Under the pieces are notes generated by a model that was given only the letters and a program-made list of their open reading frames with translations, made no database searches and was not told where the DNA came from. Of a stretch of DNA of 64,000 nt, positions 44,655 through 53,647 are shown piece after piece. The position numbers and the translations under genes were made by a program. Numbering within the stretch: the stretch's first letter is position 1; each line of letters begins with the position of its first letter. The stretch comes from Ignavibacteriota bacterium (GTDB lineage: Bacteria; Bacteroidota; Ignavibacteria; UBA10030; UBA6906), in NCBI GenBank assembly GCA_963811705.1, contig CAWESL010000008.1, forward strand, positions 454,673 through 518,672. Direction: 5' to 3'.

Positions 44655-44790
44655 GAGTACGCAGTAGGCAGTAAGGAGTATGCAGAAAACATACTGGATT
44701 CAGCCGGGAGTAGGAAGTATGACGTAGGAAGTAGGAAGAAAGCGGAGGCATTCGTCCCCCCCATCTTCCCATCTCCCCCATCCCCTCTCT
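44655..44790. repeat. Short 7/8-mer tandem arrays in the uvrD interruption spacer
   Basis: AGTACGC/AGTAGGC/AGTAAGG/AGTATGC; AGTAGGA/AGTATGA/CGTAGGA/AGTAGGA; CCCATCTY-type octamers abutting the uvrD-N stop. Confidence 0.75.
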
Positions 44791-45860
44791 CAGTCTCTCG
44801 CCCGCCGTATAATCTCGTTCGTTAAATCCAGAATCGGCTGTGTGCTCCGGTAATTCTCTTCGAGCTTGATGATTTTACAGTCGTCATACTGCTCGGGGAA
44901 CTCGAGGATGTTCCGCACGGTCGCGCCGCGGAAGCTGTAAATCGATTGCGCGTCGTCACCGACCACCATGACGTTGTGATGCCGGGAAGCGAGGAGCTGG
45001 ACGATTTCGGCCTGGATGAGGTTCGTGTCCTGGTATTCGTCCACCATGATGTATTTGTACCGGTCGCAAATCTTGGTCCGGACTTGGTCCACGTCGCGGA
45101 GCAGTTTCCGCAGATAGAGGAGAAGATCGTCGTAATCCATGAGATTGTGGCGCGATTTATATTCTTCGAATGCCCGTTGGAGCTGTCCGATCTCTTCAAG
45201 ATATCCTTCGTAGTGCGGGTATTCGTCCCGAAGCACCTCACGAAGCGGCCGGACGGTGTTGACTGCCTTGGAGAAGATATCGTAGAGCGTCTGCTTCCGC
45301 GGAAAGCGCTTCTCCTTCGTGTCGAACTTCAGCTTCGTCCGGAGCAGGTTCACCACATCTTCAGCGTCTCCCTGGTCAAGGATGCTGAACGATGACTCGA
45401 ACCCCACGAGGGGAGCGTACTGCCGCAGGACGAGGTTCGCGAAGGAATGGAAGGTCCCGCCGGCGACGTTTTCACAGCGGGCATCGAGCAGCATCGACGC
45501 CCGGCGCAGCATTTCTTGCGCCGCCCGGCGAGTGAACGTCAGGAGGAGGATAGCCTCCGGCTTGACACCCAGCTCGACGAGATAGGCGACGCGATAGACG
45601 ATCGTCCTGGTTTTCCCGGTGCCGGCGCCGGCGACGATGAGGTGCGGCCCGTTGACGGAAGACGCTGCCTCGTATTGCGCGGCATTCAGTTCGTTCCGGT
45701 AGTCGATCTTGAACTTCTGGGGAAGCGACGGTGCCGGTTCGAGCCCTGCGTCCGGGGTTTTCTTGAGGACGTATTTTTTCAACGTTGTTCGGTCTTGGTG
45801 CTCCAATTGGAAATTGGCAGTTGGGAATTCCCACGTGGCAATTGGGAACTGCCAATTCAT
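44790..45860 (-). CDS. uvrD: UvrD/PcrA-like SF1A helicase, N-terminal half
   Basis: Q motif LNAAQ, AGAGTGKT, TFHS, VDEYQD, VGDDAQSIYSFRG, EENYRS then stop; start is ATG 45860 (coupled to DUF72) or TTG 45782. Confidence 0.9.
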   Translation of the reverse strand: MNWQFPIATWEFPTANFQLEHQDRTTLKKYVLKKTPDAGLEPAPSLPQKFKIDYRNELNAAQYEAASSVNGPHLIVAGAGTGKTRTIVYRVAYLVELGVKPEAILLLTFTRRAAQEMLRRASMLLDARCENVAGGTFHSFANLVLRQYAPLVGFESSFSILDQGDAEDVVNLLRTKLKFDTKEKRFPRKQTLYDIFSKAVNTVRPLREVLRDEYPHYEGYLEEIGQLQRAFEEYKSRHNLMDYDDLLLYLRKLLRDVDQVRTKICDRYKYIMVDEYQDTNLIQAEIVQLLASRHHNVMVVGDDAQSIYSFRGATVRNILEFPEQYDDCKIIKLEENYRSTQPILDLTNEIIRRARD

Positions 45861-46861
45861 AATTTCTTGGCCGGGTACGCCTCCAGCGTGTCGAGGATCC
45901 CCTCGATCGTCTTCGGCGAATTCCCTTCGGCACGATTGTTCACGTACACATAGAGTGCGCGCTTTTCCGCGACGCACCGGTGCACCGCCTCGACAATTCC
46001 TTCCCGGAGTTCCGGGTTTTCTTCTTTGAGATGATCGTACGGCTTGAACATTTCCACCGCCTGTTCGTAGGTCCGTCCCGGTTTCAACAAGGCCCGGACG
46101 ACCGAAAAGTCCGTCGTCAACGTTCCCGAGATCCCGACCTGGCGGATGATCGGCGGCATGCGGGTCCAGTTGTTGAAGACATGCGAGACGCCGTGATCGG
46201 CGAGGAGCTTCAGGTAATCGCTCGTGAGAAAATCGCTGTTCCGTACCTCGACCGCATAGGAATACCCCCGGGGGAGCTTGGACAGAAAGTTCTCGAGGAG
46301 TGCCACGAAGCGTTCGTCGTCGATCCCGGAGTTCGGGTAGAATGTCGAGAACTCGAAAATGATCGCTCCCCGTTTTGTGCCGAGTGCGTCGAGCGGGCGG
46401 AGAAACGCGTCTTCGAAGAGGGCTGCGTTCAGAAAGTCCGGATTGTCCTTTCCGGCGAGAGCTCCGTAACGGGCGATGCCGGGATACCGGAACACGGTAA
46501 TTCTGTCGGTCACCTTCAGCGCGAGGCGAAAACCATCGGGGGTCTGATCATTGATGCGCTCCATCGTCTCGCGGTCGGGAAAATCGTAAAGCGCGAAATC
46601 CGCGCACACCGTCGGGAACAGCGCGGCATACTCCGCGAGGCATTCCTGCTCGAAGCTGCGCTGTGAGGCATATCGCCGGTTATACACCATCCCTTTCCAC
46701 CCCGGATATTTCCAGGACGACGATCCGAAGAGGATCCCGCGTGAGGCCCATGTCTCGAGCCGACTCTTGTTCCGTTCGACATACTCCGACGTCGGCGGCG
46801 GGGCTTCCGGAAAGAGCGGAAGGGTCGCATCCGCTGTTGGTGTCCGCTTCTTTTTTGGCAT
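45857..46861 (-). CDS. DUF72 family TIM-barrel protein
   Basis: GSSSWKYPGWKG.VY, YA..F.TV..D, YAVEVRN, YVYVNNRAEG. Confidence 0.88.
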   Translation of the reverse strand: MPKKKRTPTADATLPLFPEAPPPTSEYVERNKSRLETWASRGILFGSSSWKYPGWKGMVYNRRYASQRSFEQECLAEYAALFPTVCADFALYDFPDRETMERINDQTPDGFRLALKVTDRITVFRYPGIARYGALAGKDNPDFLNAALFEDAFLRPLDALGTKRGAIIFEFSTFYPNSGIDDERFVALLENFLSKLPRGYSYAVEVRNSDFLTSDYLKLLADHGVSHVFNNWTRMPPIIRQVGISGTLTTDFSVVRALLKPGRTYEQAVEMFKPYDHLKEENPELREGIVEAVHRCVAEKRALYVYVNNRAEGNSPKTIEGILDTLEAYPAKKL

Positions 46862-46952
46862 GATGCAATATACGAACGCAGGGAGAGGAAAGAAAAAGTC
46901 CACAGACGCGTGGACTTTTTCATGACCGACCGGACAACATCGCGTGAGAGGC

Positions 46953-47756
46953 TCAGCCACCCATGCCGGCCTGCATGCCGGTGATCAGGGCGAACGCCAC
47001 CCAGAGGATCCAGAGCGCGAACACAAGCACGAGGACCTTGGTCAGGTCCTTCATGAAGAGGCGTGAGAGGCCGATGCTCACCACGCCGAGGTCCCAGAAC
47101 GTAAACAGATTGATCTTTGCCAGGAGGAGGTGAATTTTATTGTCGACCGAGAAGCTGTCGAGGACAAAGAGAGCAAGGTTTGGTCCGGCATGGAGTTTAT
47201 CGAACCCGATGGCCATGATCGTTGTGACGATGGACTCGAGGCACCCGATGAAGAAGGTCAGCCCGACCACCTCCACCACTTTCATATACGGTGCGTTGAC
47301 TTTCATCACTGTTTTGCCGAGCAGCCAGTAGACCAGGCAGACAAAGAACAATCCGATGGGGACGATGATCACGAGTGATCCGGCGGTGGTGATCGTCATC
47401 CACGGCGAACTGGGGTCGGTGAATTTTTCCATCTGTTCGCGGGCCTGGTCGGCCTGTTCGGCAGTCATCTTTCCGTTCTGGATCTGTTCCTGGAGTCGTT
47501 TTTCCGACTGCTGGGAGATCTGATCTTTGAGCTGACTGGCGAGCGACGGGTTGCGCAACGTGAGTTGTGACATGCCGAACGCAATGAGGATGAAGATGAT
47601 CAACGGCACGACCCAATTGGAGGGAGTCGATGCGGTGTTGCGGACGTTGTCGAACAGCTCACTGGGCGCCGCGAAGATATTCGTCAGTCGTTCCGTGAAC
47701 GACATTGGTGCGACGGGCGGTTCACCGGTTGCTTGCGGGGTAGTGGTGTCTTCCAT
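46953..47756 (-). CDS. Yip1 family membrane protein
   Basis: IFAAPSELF, TM / soluble helix / multi-TM layout, INLFTFW; AGGAG RBS. Confidence 0.8.
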   Translation of the reverse strand: MEDTTTPQATGEPPVAPMSFTERLTNIFAAPSELFDNVRNTASTPSNWVVPLIIFILIAFGMSQLTLRNPSLASQLKDQISQQSEKRLQEQIQNGKMTAEQADQAREQMEKFTDPSSPWMTITTAGSLVIIVPIGLFFVCLVYWLLGKTVMKVNAPYMKVVEVVGLTFFIGCLESIVTTIMAIGFDKLHAGPNLALFVLDSFSVDNKIHLLLAKINLFTFWDLGVVSIGLSRLFMKDLTKVLVLVFALWILWVAFALITGMQAGMGG

Positions 47757-47827
47757 GGAGGCTCCTTTTGTGGGTTGGAGACGGGGCAACGTAGTGAAAA
47801 ACCTTTTGAGAATCAACGGTTTTGAAT

Positions 47828-47880
47828 ACGACATTTTTGTCGTTGCGTGACTTGACAGAGCGACAAATTTGTCGTATTCT
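47828..47880 (+). promoter_or_regulatory. dinB-operon promoter with two CGACA-N4-TGTCG palindromic operators
   Basis: ACGACA-TTTT-TGTCGT 47828-43; TTGACA 47852-57; CGACAAATTTGTCG 47861-74; TATTCT 47875-80 (17-bp spacing). Confidence 0.75.
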
Positions 47881-47900
47881 TTTGTCGGAACTCACCCTGG

Positions 47901-47972
47901 TCCCCCCATCTCCCTATCTCCCCATCTCCCCTTCGCGCGAAGGGGGGAAGGGGAGAACGGGGGAGGGGGAGA
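47901..47972. repeat. Pyrimidine/purine octamer hairpin element, copy 1
   Basis: (CCCCATCT)n-CCCCTTCGCGCGAAGGGG-(GGGAGA..)n; similar element at 51243-51330. Confidence 0.7.
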
Positions 47973-47979
47973 AAGAGCT

Positions 47980-49164
47980 ATGCGCCTCTATCTCCATCTT
48001 GACCTCGACAGCTTTTTCGCCTCTGTCGAAACCGCGCTCCGCCCCGAACTGCGTGGGATCCCGGTGTGTGTGGGAGGGCAGCGGGGAGGGCGCGGGATTG
48101 TAACCTGTCCGAATTACGCAGCGCGCGCGTACGGTGTCCGGACTGCCATGTCGGTGCGCGCGGCGGAGCAGCTGCTTCCGTCGACGGCCGTCTTTCTGCG
48201 GGGGAACCATCGTCTCTACGGCGATTACTCCCGGCGCGTCATGGCAATCCTGGAGTCGTTTGGACCCGGCGTGCGGCAGAAGAGCATCGATGAGGCGCTG
48301 ATGGAAATACAGGGATCCCTGCATTTCTGGGGGGACGATCCGGTTCGCATGGCGCGGGCAATCAAGGACCGCATTCAGGAGGAGACGGAGCTGACCATCT
48401 CCGCGGGGATTGCGCCCAATCCGCTCTGCGCGAAGATCGCGGCGGGTCTGCGCAAGCCGGACGGCCTCGTGCTGATACGGCACGGTCGGGTGCGCGAGAC
48501 GCTTGCGCCGCTGCCGGTGGACGTCGTGCCGGGGATCGGCAAAAAGACCGCGCCGCGTCTCCGCATGCGGGGGATCTTCACGGTCGGCGACCTGATCGCC
48601 CGGGCGCCGGAGCGTGACGGCTGGCTCGGGTCGCTGGTGCAAGCGTTGCTGGACGAGAGCGACGACCGCGAACACGGCGACCATCAGGCCGAAGAACATT
48701 CCATCTCGCGCGACAGGACGTTCGGTCAGGACACCGCCGACCGGGAACAGATCGAAACGACGCTCTTCATGTTGACCGAACGATGCTGCAAGACGCTTCG
48801 CGCCGAAGGCCTCGCGGCGTCGACGGTAACGCTGAAAGTGCGGTATGCGGATTTCACCACCGTGCAGAAACAGGAGACCCTCCCGTCGGCCGTGATGAAC
48901 GAAGAACAGATCTTCGCGGCGGTGCGGTCGCTTCTCGACGATCTCCTGCCGCCGTGGCGGTTCGTCCGTCTCGTCGGCGTCAAGGTCTCGAACCTCTCGC
49001 CGCTGGAAGGGCAACAGCTCGTCCTCGACGGCGGAGAGACGGAGCGGCTGTATCAGCTCCACCAGGAAGTGGACGCGCTGCAAAAAAAGTTCGGGGAGAA
49101 AAGCGTGCGGTGGGGGAAGGGAACAATGGACGATGGAAAATGGAAGATGGAGAATCGAGAATGA
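47980..49164 (+). CDS. dinB: DNA polymerase IV (Y family)
   Basis: HLDLDSFFASVE, YAAR..GVR.AM, SIDEA, KPDG, PGIG, RLVGV; catalytic acidic residues intact. Confidence 0.95.
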   Translation: MRLYLHLDLDSFFASVETALRPELRGIPVCVGGQRGGRGIVTCPNYAARAYGVRTAMSVRAAEQLLPSTAVFLRGNHRLYGDYSRRVMAILESFGPGVRQKSIDEALMEIQGSLHFWGDDPVRMARAIKDRIQEETELTISAGIAPNPLCAKIAAGLRKPDGLVLIRHGRVRETLAPLPVDVVPGIGKKTAPRLRMRGIFTVGDLIARAPERDGWLGSLVQALLDESDDREHGDHQAEEHSISRDRTFGQDTADREQIETTLFMLTERCCKTLRAEGLAASTVTLKVRYADFTTVQKQETLPSAVMNEEQIFAAVRSLLDDLLPPWRFVRLVGVKVSNLSPLEGQQLVLDGGETERLYQLHQEVDALQKKFGEKSVRWGKGTMDDGKWKMENRE

Positions 49165-49256
49165 GTTCGTAATCTTCAATTCCCGCCGTTTGTGTGGCGG
49201 GCCGTCCCACAGAATGAGCTCTTACAACGACGACGAAAAACATGCGATGCGTTTCG

Positions 49257-50135
49257 ATGCACGACGAATTCTCTCTTCTCCTCTCATCCCTCTCCCCCTA
49301 CCTCCGCGCGTGGGCGCGGCATGAGGTGTTCATCACGCTCGCGTCGCGGGATGCGTTCGCGCGGAGCGGGCTGAATGCCGGTATGGCGGCGGAGCTGTTC
49401 GGAACAACTCTCGCGGAACTGCCGGCGGACGGCGCTCTCCAGTACGCTCCGCACGGCGCGGGCACGGTCGACGTGATTGTCGAGGACGATGCGCTTGTCT
49501 GCCGGTTCCCGTACGACCATCCCGACCGCGCACGGCGGGGAACGCTGAACGACGCGTTCCTGCACCCGGAACGATTTGCCGGACGCCTTGCCGCCGCGCT
49601 GGCGCCGCTCGGAGGGGCGGTACGACTGGTGGTGCTGCACCCTGCGCCGCTGTACAGGACGGAGGAGATGTCGTTTGCGGAGTTTCTCGGGCGGCTCGAC
49701 CGGTTCCTTGCGATGCTGCCGCCGCCGCACCGGTATGCGCTTGAACCGGTCGGCCCCCTCTGTTTCCGGCGAGAATATTTCGCGTGCCTGCAGGCACGGG
49801 GCGTGGTGCACGTGCTCAGCGAGGGGGAGGCGCTGTTCCGTGCGCTGCCGCCGGTCAGCGATCAGCTCGCGATGCCCGGCGCGCTCGGTCATCCCTTGTG
49901 CGTGGTCCGCACCATGCCCGATCCGGTGGTCCCGGGCATGTTCCGGCCGGTCCCGGACGTCGCGCTCCGAAGACAGGGATGGCGTGATGTGGTGCGGCGA
50001 TGCCTTGCGGAACACCTCCCGGTGTATCTGTTCGCCGATGACGCAACGGATCCGCTCCGGTCGCTGATGACGTTGATGACAATGATGAATGATGATCTGG
50101 CGGAGAGGTCGGTGATCAGGAGCCATGCGGCGTAA
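49257..50135 (+). CDS. Degenerate DUF72-like protein
   Basis: Aligns by eye with 45857-46861 (RFP..G..N..FL....F...L..LG; F...L..FL..LP....YA.E; L..xGV.HV) but lacks GxSxW and NN motifs. Confidence 0.65.
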   Translation: MHDEFSLLLSSLSPYLRAWARHEVFITLASRDAFARSGLNAGMAAELFGTTLAELPADGALQYAPHGAGTVDVIVEDDALVCRFPYDHPDRARRGTLNDAFLHPERFAGRLAAALAPLGGAVRLVVLHPAPLYRTEEMSFAEFLGRLDRFLAMLPPPHRYALEPVGPLCFRREYFACLQARGVVHVLSEGEALFRALPPVSDQLAMPGALGHPLCVVRTMPDPVVPGMFRPVPDVALRRQGWRDVVRRCLAEHLPVYLFADDATDPLRSLMTLMTMMNDDLAERSVIRSHAA

Positions 50136-50242
50136 CTCACCTCCGTCCCCTCTCTTACAAAGAGAGGGGAGTGTGGAGACGGTACGTCCGGGACGTTCGC
50201 TCCCCCTTCTCATTATAAGAGAAGGGGGATGGGGGGATGAGT
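50135..50242. repeat. Composite double-hairpin intergenic element
   Basis: TCCCCTCTCTT..AAGAGAGGGGA (50146-70) and TCCCCCTTCTC..GAGAAGGGGGA (50201-29) inside outer ACTCA../..TGAGT arms. Confidence 0.7.
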
Positions 50243-50268
50243 TCAAACGAGAGGCGGATAAGCAAAAT

Positions 50269-50988
50269 ATGGACAATCAGCGCTCTTCTGCGGCAACCAC
50301 CGCTGTTGCGAGTTTACCCGCCAGTTTGTTGGCGGGCCGTCCCGCGGCCGTCGCCGTCCGCGCGTCTGCATCGCTCTCGTACGCCGCGCTGGTGAACCGG
50401 TTCCATGCCGAGCCGCACGGCAAGCTCTACTGCCTGCACGGCGATGCGATGGTGTTCCGTGTCGCGCTCTCTGCGGCGTCGCAGGCGCTCCTGCGCGGCA
50501 TGACCGTCGCCCTGGTGGATGGCGCCAACAGGTTCGACGCGTATTTCATCGCGGAGTTCGCGCGCCATGTCGAGGCGCGCGGCGGACCGCCGCCGGCGCA
50601 GCTGCTCGACAAGATCTACGTGTCGCGCGCGTTCACCTGCTACCAGATGGAAGCGGTGGTCACGGAACGGCTGCCGAAATTTCTCGAGCGGACGGGGTCG
50701 ACGGTCGCCGTCCTGTTCGGACCGCTCGATACGTTCTACGACGACCAGGCGCCGATGTTCGAGGTGAAGGCGGGAATGGAACGGATGATCGCGACATTGC
50801 GACGGCTGCGTGAACAGAAGATCGGCGTCCTGGTGGCATCGCAGGACGTCCGCCTTGCATCGCCGGAACGCAGCGGCCTGTTCCCCCGGTTCGCCGCGGC
50901 AATGGATGCGGTGTACACCGTCGGACAGGAAGAAGGTGCGCTGACGATGGCCGCACCCCACCATGGCGCCGGCAGGAATCACACGTGA
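50269..50988 (+). CDS. Inactivated RadA/RecA-fold protein (iRadA/ImuA-like)
   Basis: VALVDGANRFDAY, LLDKIYVSRAFTCYQM RadA-like core; no Walker A (LHGDAMV instead). Confidence 0.75.
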   Translation: MDNQRSSAATTAVASLPASLLAGRPAAVAVRASASLSYAALVNRFHAEPHGKLYCLHGDAMVFRVALSAASQALLRGMTVALVDGANRFDAYFIAEFARHVEARGGPPPAQLLDKIYVSRAFTCYQMEAVVTERLPKFLERTGSTVAVLFGPLDTFYDDQAPMFEVKAGMERMIATLRRLREQKIGVLVASQDVRLASPERSGLFPRFAAAMDAVYTVGQEEGALTMAAPHHGAGRNHT

Positions 50989-51000
50989 GAGGAGACACCG

Positions 51001-51333
51001 ATGGGACGCACCGTACCGACATTTACCATGGTCTTGCAGCAGGAGATCGACAGCTGGGGGAAATTCCGCCGAGCGCTGCGCAAGGAAGATCAGGACGCGA
51101 TGGACGAGCTCTTCCGCTCCGCGCAACTGCAGCTTGCGGGAAGCGCGTACGCCGCCCGGCCGATCCCCTTCGAGAGCATCGCGATGGCGATGCTGGTGGC
51201 ACTGCAGCGAAGGGTGCGGGAGCTGGAACGCAGTGCGAAGTCACCCCATGTCCCCCCATCCCCCCATCTCCCCCTCTCCCCTTCGCGCGATGGGGAGAGA
51301 GGGAGAACGGGAGAGGGGGGGAATGGGGGATGA
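51001..51333 (+). CDS. Small helical PolB2-associated protein (arCOG07300-like)
   Basis: MGRTVPTF...W.KFRRALRKEDQ...DELF signature; AGGAG RBS; C-tail encoded by a repeat element. Confidence 0.75.
   Translation: MGRTVPTFTMVLQQEIDSWGKFRRALRKEDQDAMDELFRSAQLQLAGSAYAARPIPFESIAMAMLVALQRRVRELERSAKSPHVPPSPHLPLSPSRDGERGRTGEGGNGG
51243..51330. repeat. Pyrimidine/purine octamer hairpin element, copy 2
   Basis: CCCCATGT/CCCCATCC/CCCCATCT..CCCCTTCGCGCGATGGGG..GGGAGAAC. Confidence 0.7.
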
Positions 51334-51337
51334 GTTC

Positions 51338-53647
51338 ATGACCGGCTGGCTCTTCGACATCTACGCCTCTGCGCAGGGCGTTACCGTCTGGCTGATCGAC
51401 GCGGAAGGCAGGAAGTACCGCTGCACCTATCCGTTCGTTCCGTCGCTGTACCTCCATGTCGATCGCGACGGCGCCGCCCGTGCGGAAGCGCTCGTGCGAC
51501 GGTTCCCGTTTCCCATCGCGTTCCACCCCGACCACCGGCGGGAACTCTACAGCGACGACGTGTGGGACGTCTACCGCGTCGACGTCCACGACCCGCTGCG
51601 CTTCAAACAGGTCGTGCAGACGCTCGAACGCAACTTCCCCCATTATGTCTTCTTCGACTCCGATATTCCCGTTCCGCAACGGTTCCTCTATACGACGGGA
51701 CTGTTCCCCCTGGCGTTCGGGGAGTATGCGATCGACGGGGAGGGGCGACTGATCGGGTGGGACCTGCAGGACACGTACGACGCGATGGAATATACGATCC
51801 CTCCGCTCGTCCTCATGACCATCAAGAACCGGCCCGACTTCGTTTCGGCAAAACACCGGAAGACGTTTCAACTGGAGATCTCGTACGACGGGAGAACCTA
51901 TGCCCTCGAACACCAGGAACCGGCCGAGATCCTGCGCGCGCTCAACGACCACCTCGCCCGCTGCGACCCGGACGTGATCATGACGGAACACGGCGACGCG
52001 ATCCTCCTGCCCATGCTCACGCGGTTCGCCGCGGAAACGAAGATCGACATCGCGTTCAACCGCGACCCCGCCGCAGGATATCTCACGTCGCGGGCGTCGA
52101 GCTATTTCTCCTACGGCAAGATCGTCCATAAAGAAGGCGCGTTCGAACTTGCCGGCCGGTGGCACCTCGACCTGGAAAATTCCTTCATGATGAGCGAAGC
52201 CAGCCTGGACGGCGTCGTCGAGATCGCGCGCCTGACGCAGCTTCCCGTGCAGCATCAGTCGCGCGCGACCATCGGCTCCGCGCTTTCGTCCATGCAGCTT
52301 TCCTGGGCGCAACGCAACGGCTACCTCATCCCCGCGCGCAAACGGGAGCCGGAAGAGTTCAAACCCGCGTCGACGCTCCTCCTCGCCGACCGTGGCGGAC
52401 TGATCTTCCAGCCGCTCATGGGGTTCCACGAACAGGTGGCGGAGCTCGACTTCGTTTCGATGTATCCGACGATCATGGTGGAACACAACGTCTCGCCGGA
52501 GACCGTGAACTGCCGCTGTTGCACGAATGCCATCGTCCCCGAACTGGGCTACTCCATTTGCGAGCGCCGGCAGGGGATCGTCCCCTCCACGCTGCGGACG
52601 GTTGTCCGCCGCCGCGCGTTCTTCAAAAAGAAAAAGAAGGCGCTCAAAGCGGCGAACGATCCCGCCTGGGTGTTGTTCGACCACCGGCAGAACGCGCTGA
52701 AGTGGATGCTCGTCACCTGTTTCGGCTACCTCGGCTACAAGAATGCCCGGTTCGGCCGCATCGAAGCGCATGAGACGGTCAACGCCTTTTCGCGCGACGC
52801 CATCCTCCGGGCAAAAGAAGCGGCCGAGGCGCAGGGGTTCCAGTTCCTCCATGCGATCGTCGATTGCATGTGGATCAAAAAACCGGGCGCCACCGAGGAG
52901 GACTATCACCGGCTGGCCGCACAGGTGAGTAAGGACGTCGGGATCGACCTTTCCCTCGAGGGGATCTATTCGTGGATCCTGTTCCCATCGTCGAAGATGG
53001 ATCCGCTCATCCCCACCGCAAACCGCTATGTCGGGTGGTACACGAACGGCGAGATCAAGATCCGCGGCATCGAAGTCCGCAGGCGCGATACGCCGCTGTT
53101 CATCAAGCGGATGCAGGGAGAAATGCTGCAACTGATGGGGGAGGCGAACAATGTCCGGGAGATCGAAGCGCTCGTGCCGTCGCTCCTGGCAAAAGCCGGA
53201 GAGTTTCTCGGAGTGCTCAGGCGCGGCCAGGCCGACCCCGTGGAGCTGGTGATCCATTGCCACCTGCTCCGCGAACCGGAAGAATACACCACCAACACCG
53301 TCAACGCTTCGGCCGCAAAGGCGCTCGCCGAGGCGGGGGTCCACCTCGCGGCAGGGGAAATGGTCGATTATGTGGTGGTCGACGCCACCGGGAAGAAACG
53401 CCCCGAGAAAGCACGGCCCCTCGCCCTGTATGCGCTCGAGGACGGGTACGATATCGACTTCTACACGAAGCTCGCGCTCAAGGCGGTGGAGACGCTTCTT
53501 CTCCCGCTGGGGTATCCGGCCGACCGGCTCGCACGGTTCTTCAACATCGGCGACGGAAGGCGCAAACGGGCCGCCCGGCAGGAGACGGACGGCCTGCAGC
53601 TCTCGCTCTTTGACGTCCAGGAAGACATCAGCAACAATGCGGCGTAA
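51338..53647 (+). CDS. polB: Family B DNA polymerase, PolB2-type
   Basis: Motif A ELDFVSMYP; motif B RQNALKWMLVTCFGYLG; motif C HAIVDCMW (PolB2-style, not YGDTDS); KIRGIE.RR.D; degenerate exonuclease; terminal QLSLF. Confidence 0.9.
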   Translation: MTGWLFDIYASAQGVTVWLIDAEGRKYRCTYPFVPSLYLHVDRDGAARAEALVRRFPFPIAFHPDHRRELYSDDVWDVYRVDVHDPLRFKQVVQTLERNFPHYVFFDSDIPVPQRFLYTTGLFPLAFGEYAIDGEGRLIGWDLQDTYDAMEYTIPPLVLMTIKNRPDFVSAKHRKTFQLEISYDGRTYALEHQEPAEILRALNDHLARCDPDVIMTEHGDAILLPMLTRFAAETKIDIAFNRDPAAGYLTSRASSYFSYGKIVHKEGAFELAGRWHLDLENSFMMSEASLDGVVEIARLTQLPVQHQSRATIGSALSSMQLSWAQRNGYLIPARKREPEEFKPASTLLLADRGGLIFQPLMGFHEQVAELDFVSMYPTIMVEHNVSPETVNCRCCTNAIVPELGYSICERRQGIVPSTLRTVVRRRAFFKKKKKALKAANDPAWVLFDHRQNALKWMLVTCFGYLGYKNARFGRIEAHETVNAFSRDAILRAKEAAEAQGFQFLHAIVDCMWIKKPGATEEDYHRLAAQVSKDVGIDLSLEGIYSWILFPSSKMDPLIPTANRYVGWYTNGEIKIRGIEVRRRDTPLFIKRMQGEMLQLMGEANNVREIEALVPSLLAKAGEFLGVLRRGQADPVELVIHCHLLREPEEYTTNTVNASAAKALAEAGVHLAAGEMVDYVVVDATGKKRPEKARPLALYALEDGYDIDFYTKLALKAVETLLLPLGYPADRLARFFNIGDGRRKRAARQETDGLQLSLFDVQEDISNNAA

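Follow-up and report, generated by a model that had tools for sequence, protein, structure and literature searches.

The window analysed here is a stretch of 64,000 nucleotides from an Ignavibacteriota bacterium, whose genome (G000) comprises 5.18 Mb in 22 contigs. It carries an operon that begins with dinB and ends with the gene of a putative PolB2-type DNA polymerase, and two palindromes, O1 and O2, overlap the promoter of this operon. They are considered here as putative operators of a repressor with a Peptidase_S24 domain. Positions 47826-47888 of the window read ATACGACATTTTTGTCGTTGCGTGACTTGACAGAGCGACAAATTTGTCGTATTCTTTTGTCGG and hold the following features:

47829..47842, no strand assigned: O1, putative distal operator CGACATTTTTGTCG (extended form ATACGACATTTTTGTCGTTG); exact match, position weight matrix (PWM) score 26.5
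47852..47857, plus strand: -35 hexamer TTGACA of the dinB-PolB2 operon promoter, from a consensus scan
47861..47874, no strand assigned: O2, putative proximal operator CGACAAATTTGTCG; exact match, PWM score 24.8
47875..47880, plus strand: -10 hexamer TATTCT, from the consensus scan
47881..47887, no strand assigned: additional TTTGTCG resembling a half-site; present, not conserved within the genus

The motif CGACANNNNTGTCG has two exact matches in the 64-kb window, at 47829-47842 and 47861-47874, against an expectation of 0.11, and at least two matches were reached in none of 100 dinucleotide shuffles. The first-pass annotation had described two 14-bp palindromes 33 bp apart; the palindromes are there, and the distance is 32 bp from start to start, with a gap of 18 bp between them. 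Its placing of one palindrome just upstream of TTGACA and of the other in the spacer up to TATTCT agrees with the consensus scan, in which these two hexamers and their 17-nt spacer form the sole sigma-70-like promoter in 47650-48050, matching the consensus at 10 of 12 positions. O1 ends 9 nt upstream of the -35 hexamer, while O2 occupies the -35/-10 spacer and abuts the -10 hexamer. By consensus, this is a sigma-70-type promoter with hexamers within 16-18 nt of each other and an operator-like site in its spacer, a layout that recurs in relatives: TTGACA is kept at the same place in orthologous promoters, and the distal site again lies 31-32 bp upstream of the proximal one. The further half-site claimed at 47881 exists as a sequence but not as a conserved element, its counterpart being TTTGTAA in G002 and absent in G003, both of the same genus. 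It was rejected as a third half-site and is probably a chance occurrence.

Across the genome, the exact pattern CGACA-N4-TGTCG occurs 25 times, and in only five of these is the spacer made up entirely of A and T. Allowing one mismatch at most in the extended form ACGACA-W4-TGTCGT returns the same five sites. They are also the top scores (24.8-28.9) of a PWM built from orthologous sites of other genomes; the next best site, at 21.5, is intragenic. All five are intergenic, as classed by a crude gene finder used for that purpose only, and they fall at four unlinked loci: the pair in the window, the promoters of two genes for coiled-coil proteins (on contigs C10 and C21), and C13:71480, which lies between a DUF72 gene and the only S24-peptidase gene of the genome.

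That gene (C13:70789-71436) lies on a contig other than the window's, in keeping with the earlier remark that the window holds no repressor gene. It is single-copy, it stands between the DUF72 gene and a TonB-like gene (the TonB label was given by eye), and a second, weaker site is found 31 bp from the A/T-spacer site upstream of it. Its product of 216 amino acids (aa) combines an HTH_3 helix-turn-helix (HTH) domain (residues 9-63), a Phage_CI_repr match over the cut-off and a Peptidase_S24 domain (residues 97-206; PF00717, E 7e-25) in which both the Ala-Gly cleavage site and the Ser/Lys dyad are present. Among 12 aligned orthologues there is no variation at G105, S139 or K175, nor in the presumed recognition-helix stretch R32-T33-x-Q35-R36-W37-E38; at residue 104, ten have A and two have G. 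Profile searches against solved structures align residues 95-207 to Escherichia coli LexA across its VAAG cleavage site (E 1.8e-16) and residues 4-67 to the P22 C2 (E 1.8e-8) and 434 repressors. An AlphaFold model of the protein has a mean predicted local distance difference test (pLDDT) score of 66.6, with 70-85 in the C-terminal domain, the only part whose structural match was used. The best fold match of this domain is a lambda repressor fragment on a RecA filament (8gmu_A, E 1.9e-10, TM 0.76 over the target), followed by LexA and UmuD', and a recA gene is present in the genome. The palindromic form of the sites and the protein family point to a repressor that dimerises. Judged by these domains, the regulator is a phage-type S24 repressor with a Cro/CI HTH, and is no LexA homologue in its DNA-binding domain.

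Sites of the autoregulatory type are conserved across the order. Of 40 related genomes, 31 have a repressor orthologue, with identities of 51-95%. When 30 repressor loci, the window's own genome included, were considered, exact CGACA-N4-TGTCG was found within 250 bp upstream in 20, and in 26 with at most one mismatch; of the remaining four, three have an exact site about 350 bp upstream and one has a site beside a truncated match. A collection of named public genomes, titled Ignavibacteriota, Ignavibacteria or 'Bacteroidota', supplied 80 repressor loci with 75 usable upstream regions; these loci partly overlap the species of the 40 relatives, and the two counts are not independent. GACA-W4-TGTC stands upstream of 65 of the 75 orthologous repressor genes, that of Ignavibacterium album included, compared with a mean of 0.095 and a maximum of 1 in 200 shuffles and with 0/75 for the reversed pattern. 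The exact 5-4-5 form is present in 51 of the 75 regions and a pair of sites in 44; every pair is spaced 31-33 bp, and 36 of the 44 have the 32 bp seen in the window. Within these regions, both sites are situated downstream of the repressor's own promoter, TTGACA-17-TAnnAT. Towards the DUF72 gene, on the opposite strand, there is a TTGACA/TAnnnT promoter whose spacer is taken up by the stronger site, with the weaker one immediately upstream, and the window shows the same geometry. A DUF72 gene is divergent from the repressor gene in 52 of the 80 loci, and an iRadA-like gene and PolB2 lie beside it in eight.

The same arrangement reappears at the presumed target genes, where the cassette TTGACA-N2/3-(A)CGACA-W4-TGTCG-TAnnnT is common to the promoters of DUF72, dinB, PolB2 and small-protein genes. 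In 41 genomes, CGACAWWWWTGTCG occurs 71 times, compared with six times for its reversed control. Homologues of dinB were found in 22 of the 40 relatives; the 400 bp upstream contain a site in 13 of 24 dinB rows, set within TTGACA-N2-ACGACAAAAATGTCG-TAnnnT, and the dinB promoters of relatives carry a half-degenerate distal site about 32 bp upstream. Twenty further sites comprise seven before iRadA-like/PPB2/PolB2 genes, two before DUF72 genes, one before dinB, two before a Cys-rich gene, three with promoter-like flanks but unknown genes, and five that look like chance or in-gene matches. The coiled-coil genes of the window's genome encode two small paralogues of 64 aa (L002 4046-4237, plus strand, contig C10) and 81 aa (L003 3729-3971, minus strand, contig C21), neither with a family match, and each lies behind a TTGCnn-N2-ACGACA-W4-TGTCG-TAnnnT promoter. 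All nine copies of this gene in six genomes (the window's and five others) have the cassette, and the small coiled-coil proteins are candidate damage-response effectors. The first-pass annotation had named absence from other repair promoters and orthologous operons as what would speak against its proposal, and had suggested a scan upstream of recA, uvrA and ssb. The motif does recur at orthologous dinB, PolB2 and DUF72 genes; at recA, the two uvrA genes and ssb of the window's genome the scan found no site (best PWM scores 3.0, -4.0, 1.8 and 0.5, respectively), and the regulon is therefore narrow.

The Cys-rich gene encodes a protein of 80 aa with four Cys pairs and a weak likeness to a double zinc ribbon (L180 2149-2391, minus strand). 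It is the first gene behind the operator pair, before dinB, in several genera (L119-L122, L129, L137), and is absent from the window's operon. Motif matches in G028, G029 and G030 and one site in G021 were set aside, as they have no promoter cassette or an unclear context. In G029 (L182, about 2516) and G030 (L185, about 2503) the motif sits inside a longer palindrome, CCACGACATTTATGTCGTGG, preceded by ATTGCCA, with no open reading frame (ORF) of at least 60 aa near it in either locus; this may be a different element, such as a hairpin. G029 has no repressor orthologue and no S24 or LexA match, and G030 has a canonical LexA and no orthologue.

The genes on either side of the operators in the window are these:

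47980..49164, plus strand: dinB (Y-family DNA polymerase IV), first gene of the operon; Pfam IMS, IMS_C and IMS_HHH
49242..50135, plus strand: 297-aa gene with weak DUF72 likeness; Pfam DUF72 E 1.4e-4, below cut-off
50125..50988, plus strand: candidate iRadA (inactive RadA-like PolB2 partner), 287-codon ORF with uncertain start codon; named by position only
51001..51333, plus strand: PPB2, small helical PolB2 partner of 110 aa beginning MGRT; from the translation
51338..53647, plus strand: putative PolB2-type family-B DNA polymerase; Pfam DNA_pol_B
46953..47756, minus strand: divergent gene of a YknW-like membrane protein, likely ATG at 47756; NCBIfam YknW_fam 44 bits, below cut-off
45857..46960, minus strand: DUF72 gene downstream of the YknW-like gene; Pfam DUF72 E 1.4e-31

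The dinB product matches the NCBIfam DNA polymerase IV models below their curated cut-offs, and the 297-aa DUF72-like protein has no NCBIfam match. The candidate iRadA lies directly before PPB2-PolB2 and its homologues adjoin PolB2 in relatives; it takes its name from this position because it has no Pfam match and no significant match to PDB sequences. Homologues of PPB2 stand between the iRadA-like gene and PolB2 in relatives, and the best NCBIfam match of the polymerase is a type B polymerase model (NF004416, 402 bits, below the cut-off of 516). The bacterial PolB2 mutasome operon is described as having the order iRadA-PPB2-PolB2, with a conserved MGRT N-terminus in PPB2 (Comput Struct Biotechnol J 2025, PMC11791011). 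The last three genes of the operon in the window follow that published order: the candidate iRadA, PPB2 with its MGRT start, and the putative PolB2-type polymerase. The polymerase ORF listed from 50963 begins about 125 codons early; these first codons look non-coding and overlap PPB2, and the real start is near 51338. The overlong portion (50963-51337) hides the PPB2 gene in another frame, and automatic annotation could miss PPB2.

On the other side, the divergent YknW-like gene may share O1, and relatives have seven further loci in which a YknW-like and a DUF72 gene are together divergent from the operators. The idea that the motif controls only this divergent membrane-protein gene, labelled Yip1 at first, is not borne out. 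The consensus scan found no promoter for the YknW-like gene in 47650-48050; by eye, the minus strand offers TTGATT, 17 nt and TACGTT at 47816-47788, conserved in G003 and below the threshold of the scan. Among sequencing runs, 47000-50000 of the window was matched by no RNA run and by only four DNA runs, all from one study and each with a small share.

In view of these data, the two palindromes are very probably the operators of the chromosomal, autoregulated CI-type S24 repressor encoded at G000:C13:70789-71436. A repressor dimer would bind each (A)CGACA-W4-TGTCG(T) site; occupation of the proximal site, in the -35/-10 spacer, would exclude RNA polymerase, and the distal site, three helical turns (32 bp) away, would probably add cooperative binding. 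By analogy with LexA and CI, RecA filaments formed upon DNA damage would induce the Ser139/Lys175 dyad to cut the repressor between Ala104 and Gly105. This would then release the operon of dinB, DUF72-like, iRadA-like, PPB2 and PolB2 genes, and perhaps also the divergent YknW-like and DUF72 genes, which would make the operon inducible by damage.

Several observations weigh against this interpretation. In G011, whose 10 contigs amount to a 98% complete genome, the Cys-rich gene is preceded by a clear operator pair (L180, G011:C6:83254-88254), and three different queries found no S24 domain or repressor homologue in this genome; either the repressor gene is unassembled there or another factor binds the operators. 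The fragmented assemblies G021 and G013 likewise have operator-bearing promoters and no detected repressor. A site is missing within 400 bp in 11 of the 24 dinB rows; two of these 11 stand behind a DUF72 gene that is divergent from the repressor gene and has its operators in common with it, and most of the others (35-46% identical) may be paralogues. The HTH part of the repressor model is of low confidence (pLDDT 52-62), and the related genomes are not independent, with the result that the counts overstate the number of independent observations. Finally, 'SOS' is a label by analogy, drawn from the translesion-polymerase targets and the type of repressor, and recA, uvrA and ssb have no site.

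The genomes without a detected repressor lend themselves to an alternative in which the palindromes are the operators of a different factor, for instance an HTH protein without an S24 domain, and the S24 gene merely belongs to its regulon. This is unlikely. The sites precede 65 of the 75 orthologous repressor genes, with a fixed spacing where they are paired, a classic signature of autoregulation, and the recognition-helix region (R32, T33, Q35, R36, W37, E38) and the GACA/TGTC core of the sites both stay unchanged among the 12 aligned orthologues. The LexA-bearing genomes G028 and G030 have no orthologue, and their few motif matches are without promoter context. Moreover, where the repressor gene is missing in G022, the contig breaks off directly behind the operator pair, so the remaining gaps may likewise be assembly artefacts.

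It is very improbable that the S24 protein is the immunity repressor of a prophage or mobile element, and that the palindromes are immunity operators lying near polymerase genes by chance. The N-terminal domain is indeed of the phage CI/P22 C2 type, and G+C-rich repeats show that mobile DNA has inserted in the operon; yet the gene is single-copy between DUF72 and TonB-like genes with no phage genes in the flanks read, across the order, 52 of 80 loci still have DUF72 next to the orthologue, and the four unlinked loci with sites hold polymerase and repair genes as targets. Less credible still is the proposal that the palindromes bind no protein and form hairpins in RNA or DNA, for instance as an intrinsic terminator or attenuator. 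A simple scan does flag O2, read as GCGACAAATTTGTCGT then ATTCTTTTGT, as terminator-like, with six pairs, a 4-nt loop and a T run. However, the proximal site lies between the -35 and -10 hexamers and is therefore untranscribed from that promoter, and degenerate distal sites change one arm without compensation (TGTC to TGTT, TGAC or TGTG, with GACA kept). The sequence of the arms is also conserved beyond mere pairing, and the pair spacing of 31-33 bp fits binding on one face of the helix. That the palindromes are a divergent binding box of canonical LexA has a negligible probability: the 5-4-5 layout resembles the Gram-positive LexA box, CGAAC-N4-GTTCG, and N4-spaced boxes, AGTGAACAAATGAGCACT among them, serve LexA in sister orders of the class, but neither the window's genome nor any of 24 genomes sampled from the same family has a match to PF01726, the LexA DNA-binding domain, and the sole S24 protein reaches 67 bits against TIGR00498 (cut-off 111), over its C-terminal half only (residues 95-215).

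The CI-type repressor and canonical LexA are distributed in a complementary way, and genomes with the latter are without the former. In the same order there are only two strong PF01726 matches, in G028 (E 1.6e-25) and G030 (E 2.3e-16), both beside an S24 domain and both in genomes without a repressor orthologue. G028 carries lexA followed by DUF72, SRAP (on the other strand), an iRadA-like gene, PPB2 and PolB2, and its lexA promoter has the palindrome GGTATAC-N4-GTATACC. Among 300 sampled genomes of the phylum, only members of the order have orthologues of the repressor (E at most 1e-79). Five loci from other orders of the class (L173-L175, L178, L179) have a canonical LexA with N4-spaced boxes of its own, and the nearest full-length XRE-S24 proteins outside the order are 25-34% identical to the repressor. 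The first-pass annotation had suggested a site for 'a lineage-specific LexA or other damage-repressor'; its second alternative fits, the same palindrome pair being present at the sole S24 gene, and no PF01726 match was found in the genome.

Two side observations concern these other regulators. At L173, L175, L178 and L179, paired AGTG-NNC-N4-GNN-CACT boxes overlap a TTGACA/TATATT promoter of the canonical lexA. At L217 (G283, same class), an XRE-S24 protein that is 31% identical to the repressor has its own upstream palindromes, TTGATACGTACGTATCAA and TTGATACATATGTATCCA, which suggests that further independent repressor-box pairs exist in the class. A same-position replacement between G036 (XRE-S24) and G028 (LexA), which belong to one family, was considered and rejected: the G036 repressor lies near dinB only, with no PolB2 or DUF72. 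A shared position of repressor and LexA does hold in other genomes, if not for this pair.

It is conceivable, and is put forward tentatively, that a CI-type S24 repressor of phage origin displaced LexA in one order of Ignavibacteria, where it now adjoins and controls the island of DUF72, PolB2 mutasome and dinB genes as a minimal regulon devoted to mutagenesis. The island in question (DUF72, PolB2 mutasome) is adjoined by the canonical LexA in the sister genome G028. If this were true, the regulon would leave out recA, uvrA and ssb, and new damage-response effectors, such as division inhibitors or accessory factors of the mutasome, would be found among its unexplained members, namely the coiled-coil protein of 64-81 aa, the zinc-ribbon-like protein of 80 aa and the YknW-like membrane protein.

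Regulators of a comparable kind are known. The non-canonical LexA of Bacteroidetes recognises the boxes GGA-N5-TCC, CTAA-N5-TTAG and TTAC-N5-GTAA (Sanchez-Osuna et al., Nucleic Acids Res 2021, PMC8565304). As described there, it joins an S24 domain with Ala-Gly site and Ser/Lys dyad to a CI-type HTH without the LexA winged helix, is autoregulated through a palindromic dyad-spacer box that often occurs at two or more sites per promoter, and controls dinB and other damage-tolerance genes in a LexA-less lineage. The repressor of the window's genome is alike in all these respects, the control of targets being predicted here from the sites, and it belongs to the same phylum in the GTDB sense. It differs in its box, GACA-N4-TGTC, which is none of the three published ones (PMC8565304), and in its targets, recA not being among them while the PolB2 mutasome and DUF72 genes are. 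The available text of that study contains no mention of Ignavibacteria, Chlorobi, 'polB' or 'DUF72'. Upstream of 12 full-length XRE-S24 homologues from other orders or classes, neither the published Bacteroidetes boxes nor GACA-N4-TGTC were found, a result that says nothing about a shared clade.

HdiR is named as another phage-type repressor of the same kind (PMC8565304), and FddR of Francisella is likewise a co-opted phage-type S24 repressor that regulates itself and divergent genes, with a small damage regulon outside the canonical SOS genes (Perez-Varela et al., PNAS Nexus 2026, PMC13148647). In contrast to the present system, FddR belongs to another phylum and has the box GTG-N11-CAC, as given in that report (PMC13148647), whereas translesion polymerases are the targets here. 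The lambda CI, P22 C2 and 434 repressors share the HTH type, and the S24 fold of the repressor is closest to the RecA-bound lambda CI fragment; paired operators are a further likeness, suggesting cooperative dimers. Unlike these phage proteins, the repressor is encoded by a chromosomal gene conserved across the order, with host repair genes as its targets and sites 32 bp apart.

Canonical LexA offers the same logic of an autoregulated, self-cleaving repressor, with an operator that overlaps the core promoter and with dinB and a B-family polymerase among the targets. The polB gene of E. coli is LexA-regulated. The differences lie in an unrelated DNA-binding domain, a different box, and a regulon that here excludes recA, uvrA and ssb; the E. 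coli LexA box is CTGT-N8-ACAG (PMC8565304). Near bacterial polB2 genes, lexA, SRAP and DUF72 are reported to be enriched (PMC11791011), and the same neighbours are met here and in G028. In the accessible part of that report, damage control of PolB2 operons is deduced from a nearby lexA and no operator is given (PMC11791011); in the present genome, by contrast, a CI-type S24 repressor with a defined box is the candidate, and dinB is fused into the operon.

In the library searched, no account of this regulator, box or regulon came up for Ignavibacteria in connection with LexA, SOS or S24. The kind of regulator, a phage-type non-canonical SOS repressor, is known; what appears to be new is the box and the PolB2 mutasome, DinB and DUF72 as core targets. 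The system would be a further case of LexA replaced by a phage-type S24 repressor. Since close relatives keep a canonical LexA, in one instance with lexA beside the same island, it provides a good setting in which to study how SOS networks are rebuilt. To our knowledge, O1 and O2 would be the first defined cis-element to subject a bacterial PolB2 mutasome, DinB and DUF72 proteins jointly to a damage-type switch; such shared control would support the proposed role of DUF72 in repair and single out small uncharacterised proteins as candidates in the damage response.

Two further features of the window lie outside the proposed switch. Downstream of the divergent DUF72 gene, a 395-codon ORF (44790-45977, minus strand) has only the N-terminal domain of a UvrD/REP helicase and overlaps the DUF72 gene by about 120 nt; it looks truncated or split, because the next gene encodes a homocysteine S-methyltransferase. 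The other feature lies between the operators and dinB:

47900..47972, plus strand: G+C-rich palindromic repeat in the dinB 5' leader; related copies before PolB2 and elsewhere in the genome

This repeat is absent from the leader in G003; it is an insertion in the dinB leader and no part of the switch. It is made up of CCCC/TCTCCCC runs, a central TCGCGCGA and then GGGGAGA runs, and copies of the family lie at 47900-47972 and about 51255-51335 in the window and at C1:25283, C2:208042 and C8:523996 in the genome. At the PPB2/PolB2 junction, the PPB2 reading frame runs into the repeat, which supplies its C-terminal tail. These G+C-rich repeats look like REP-type miniature elements.

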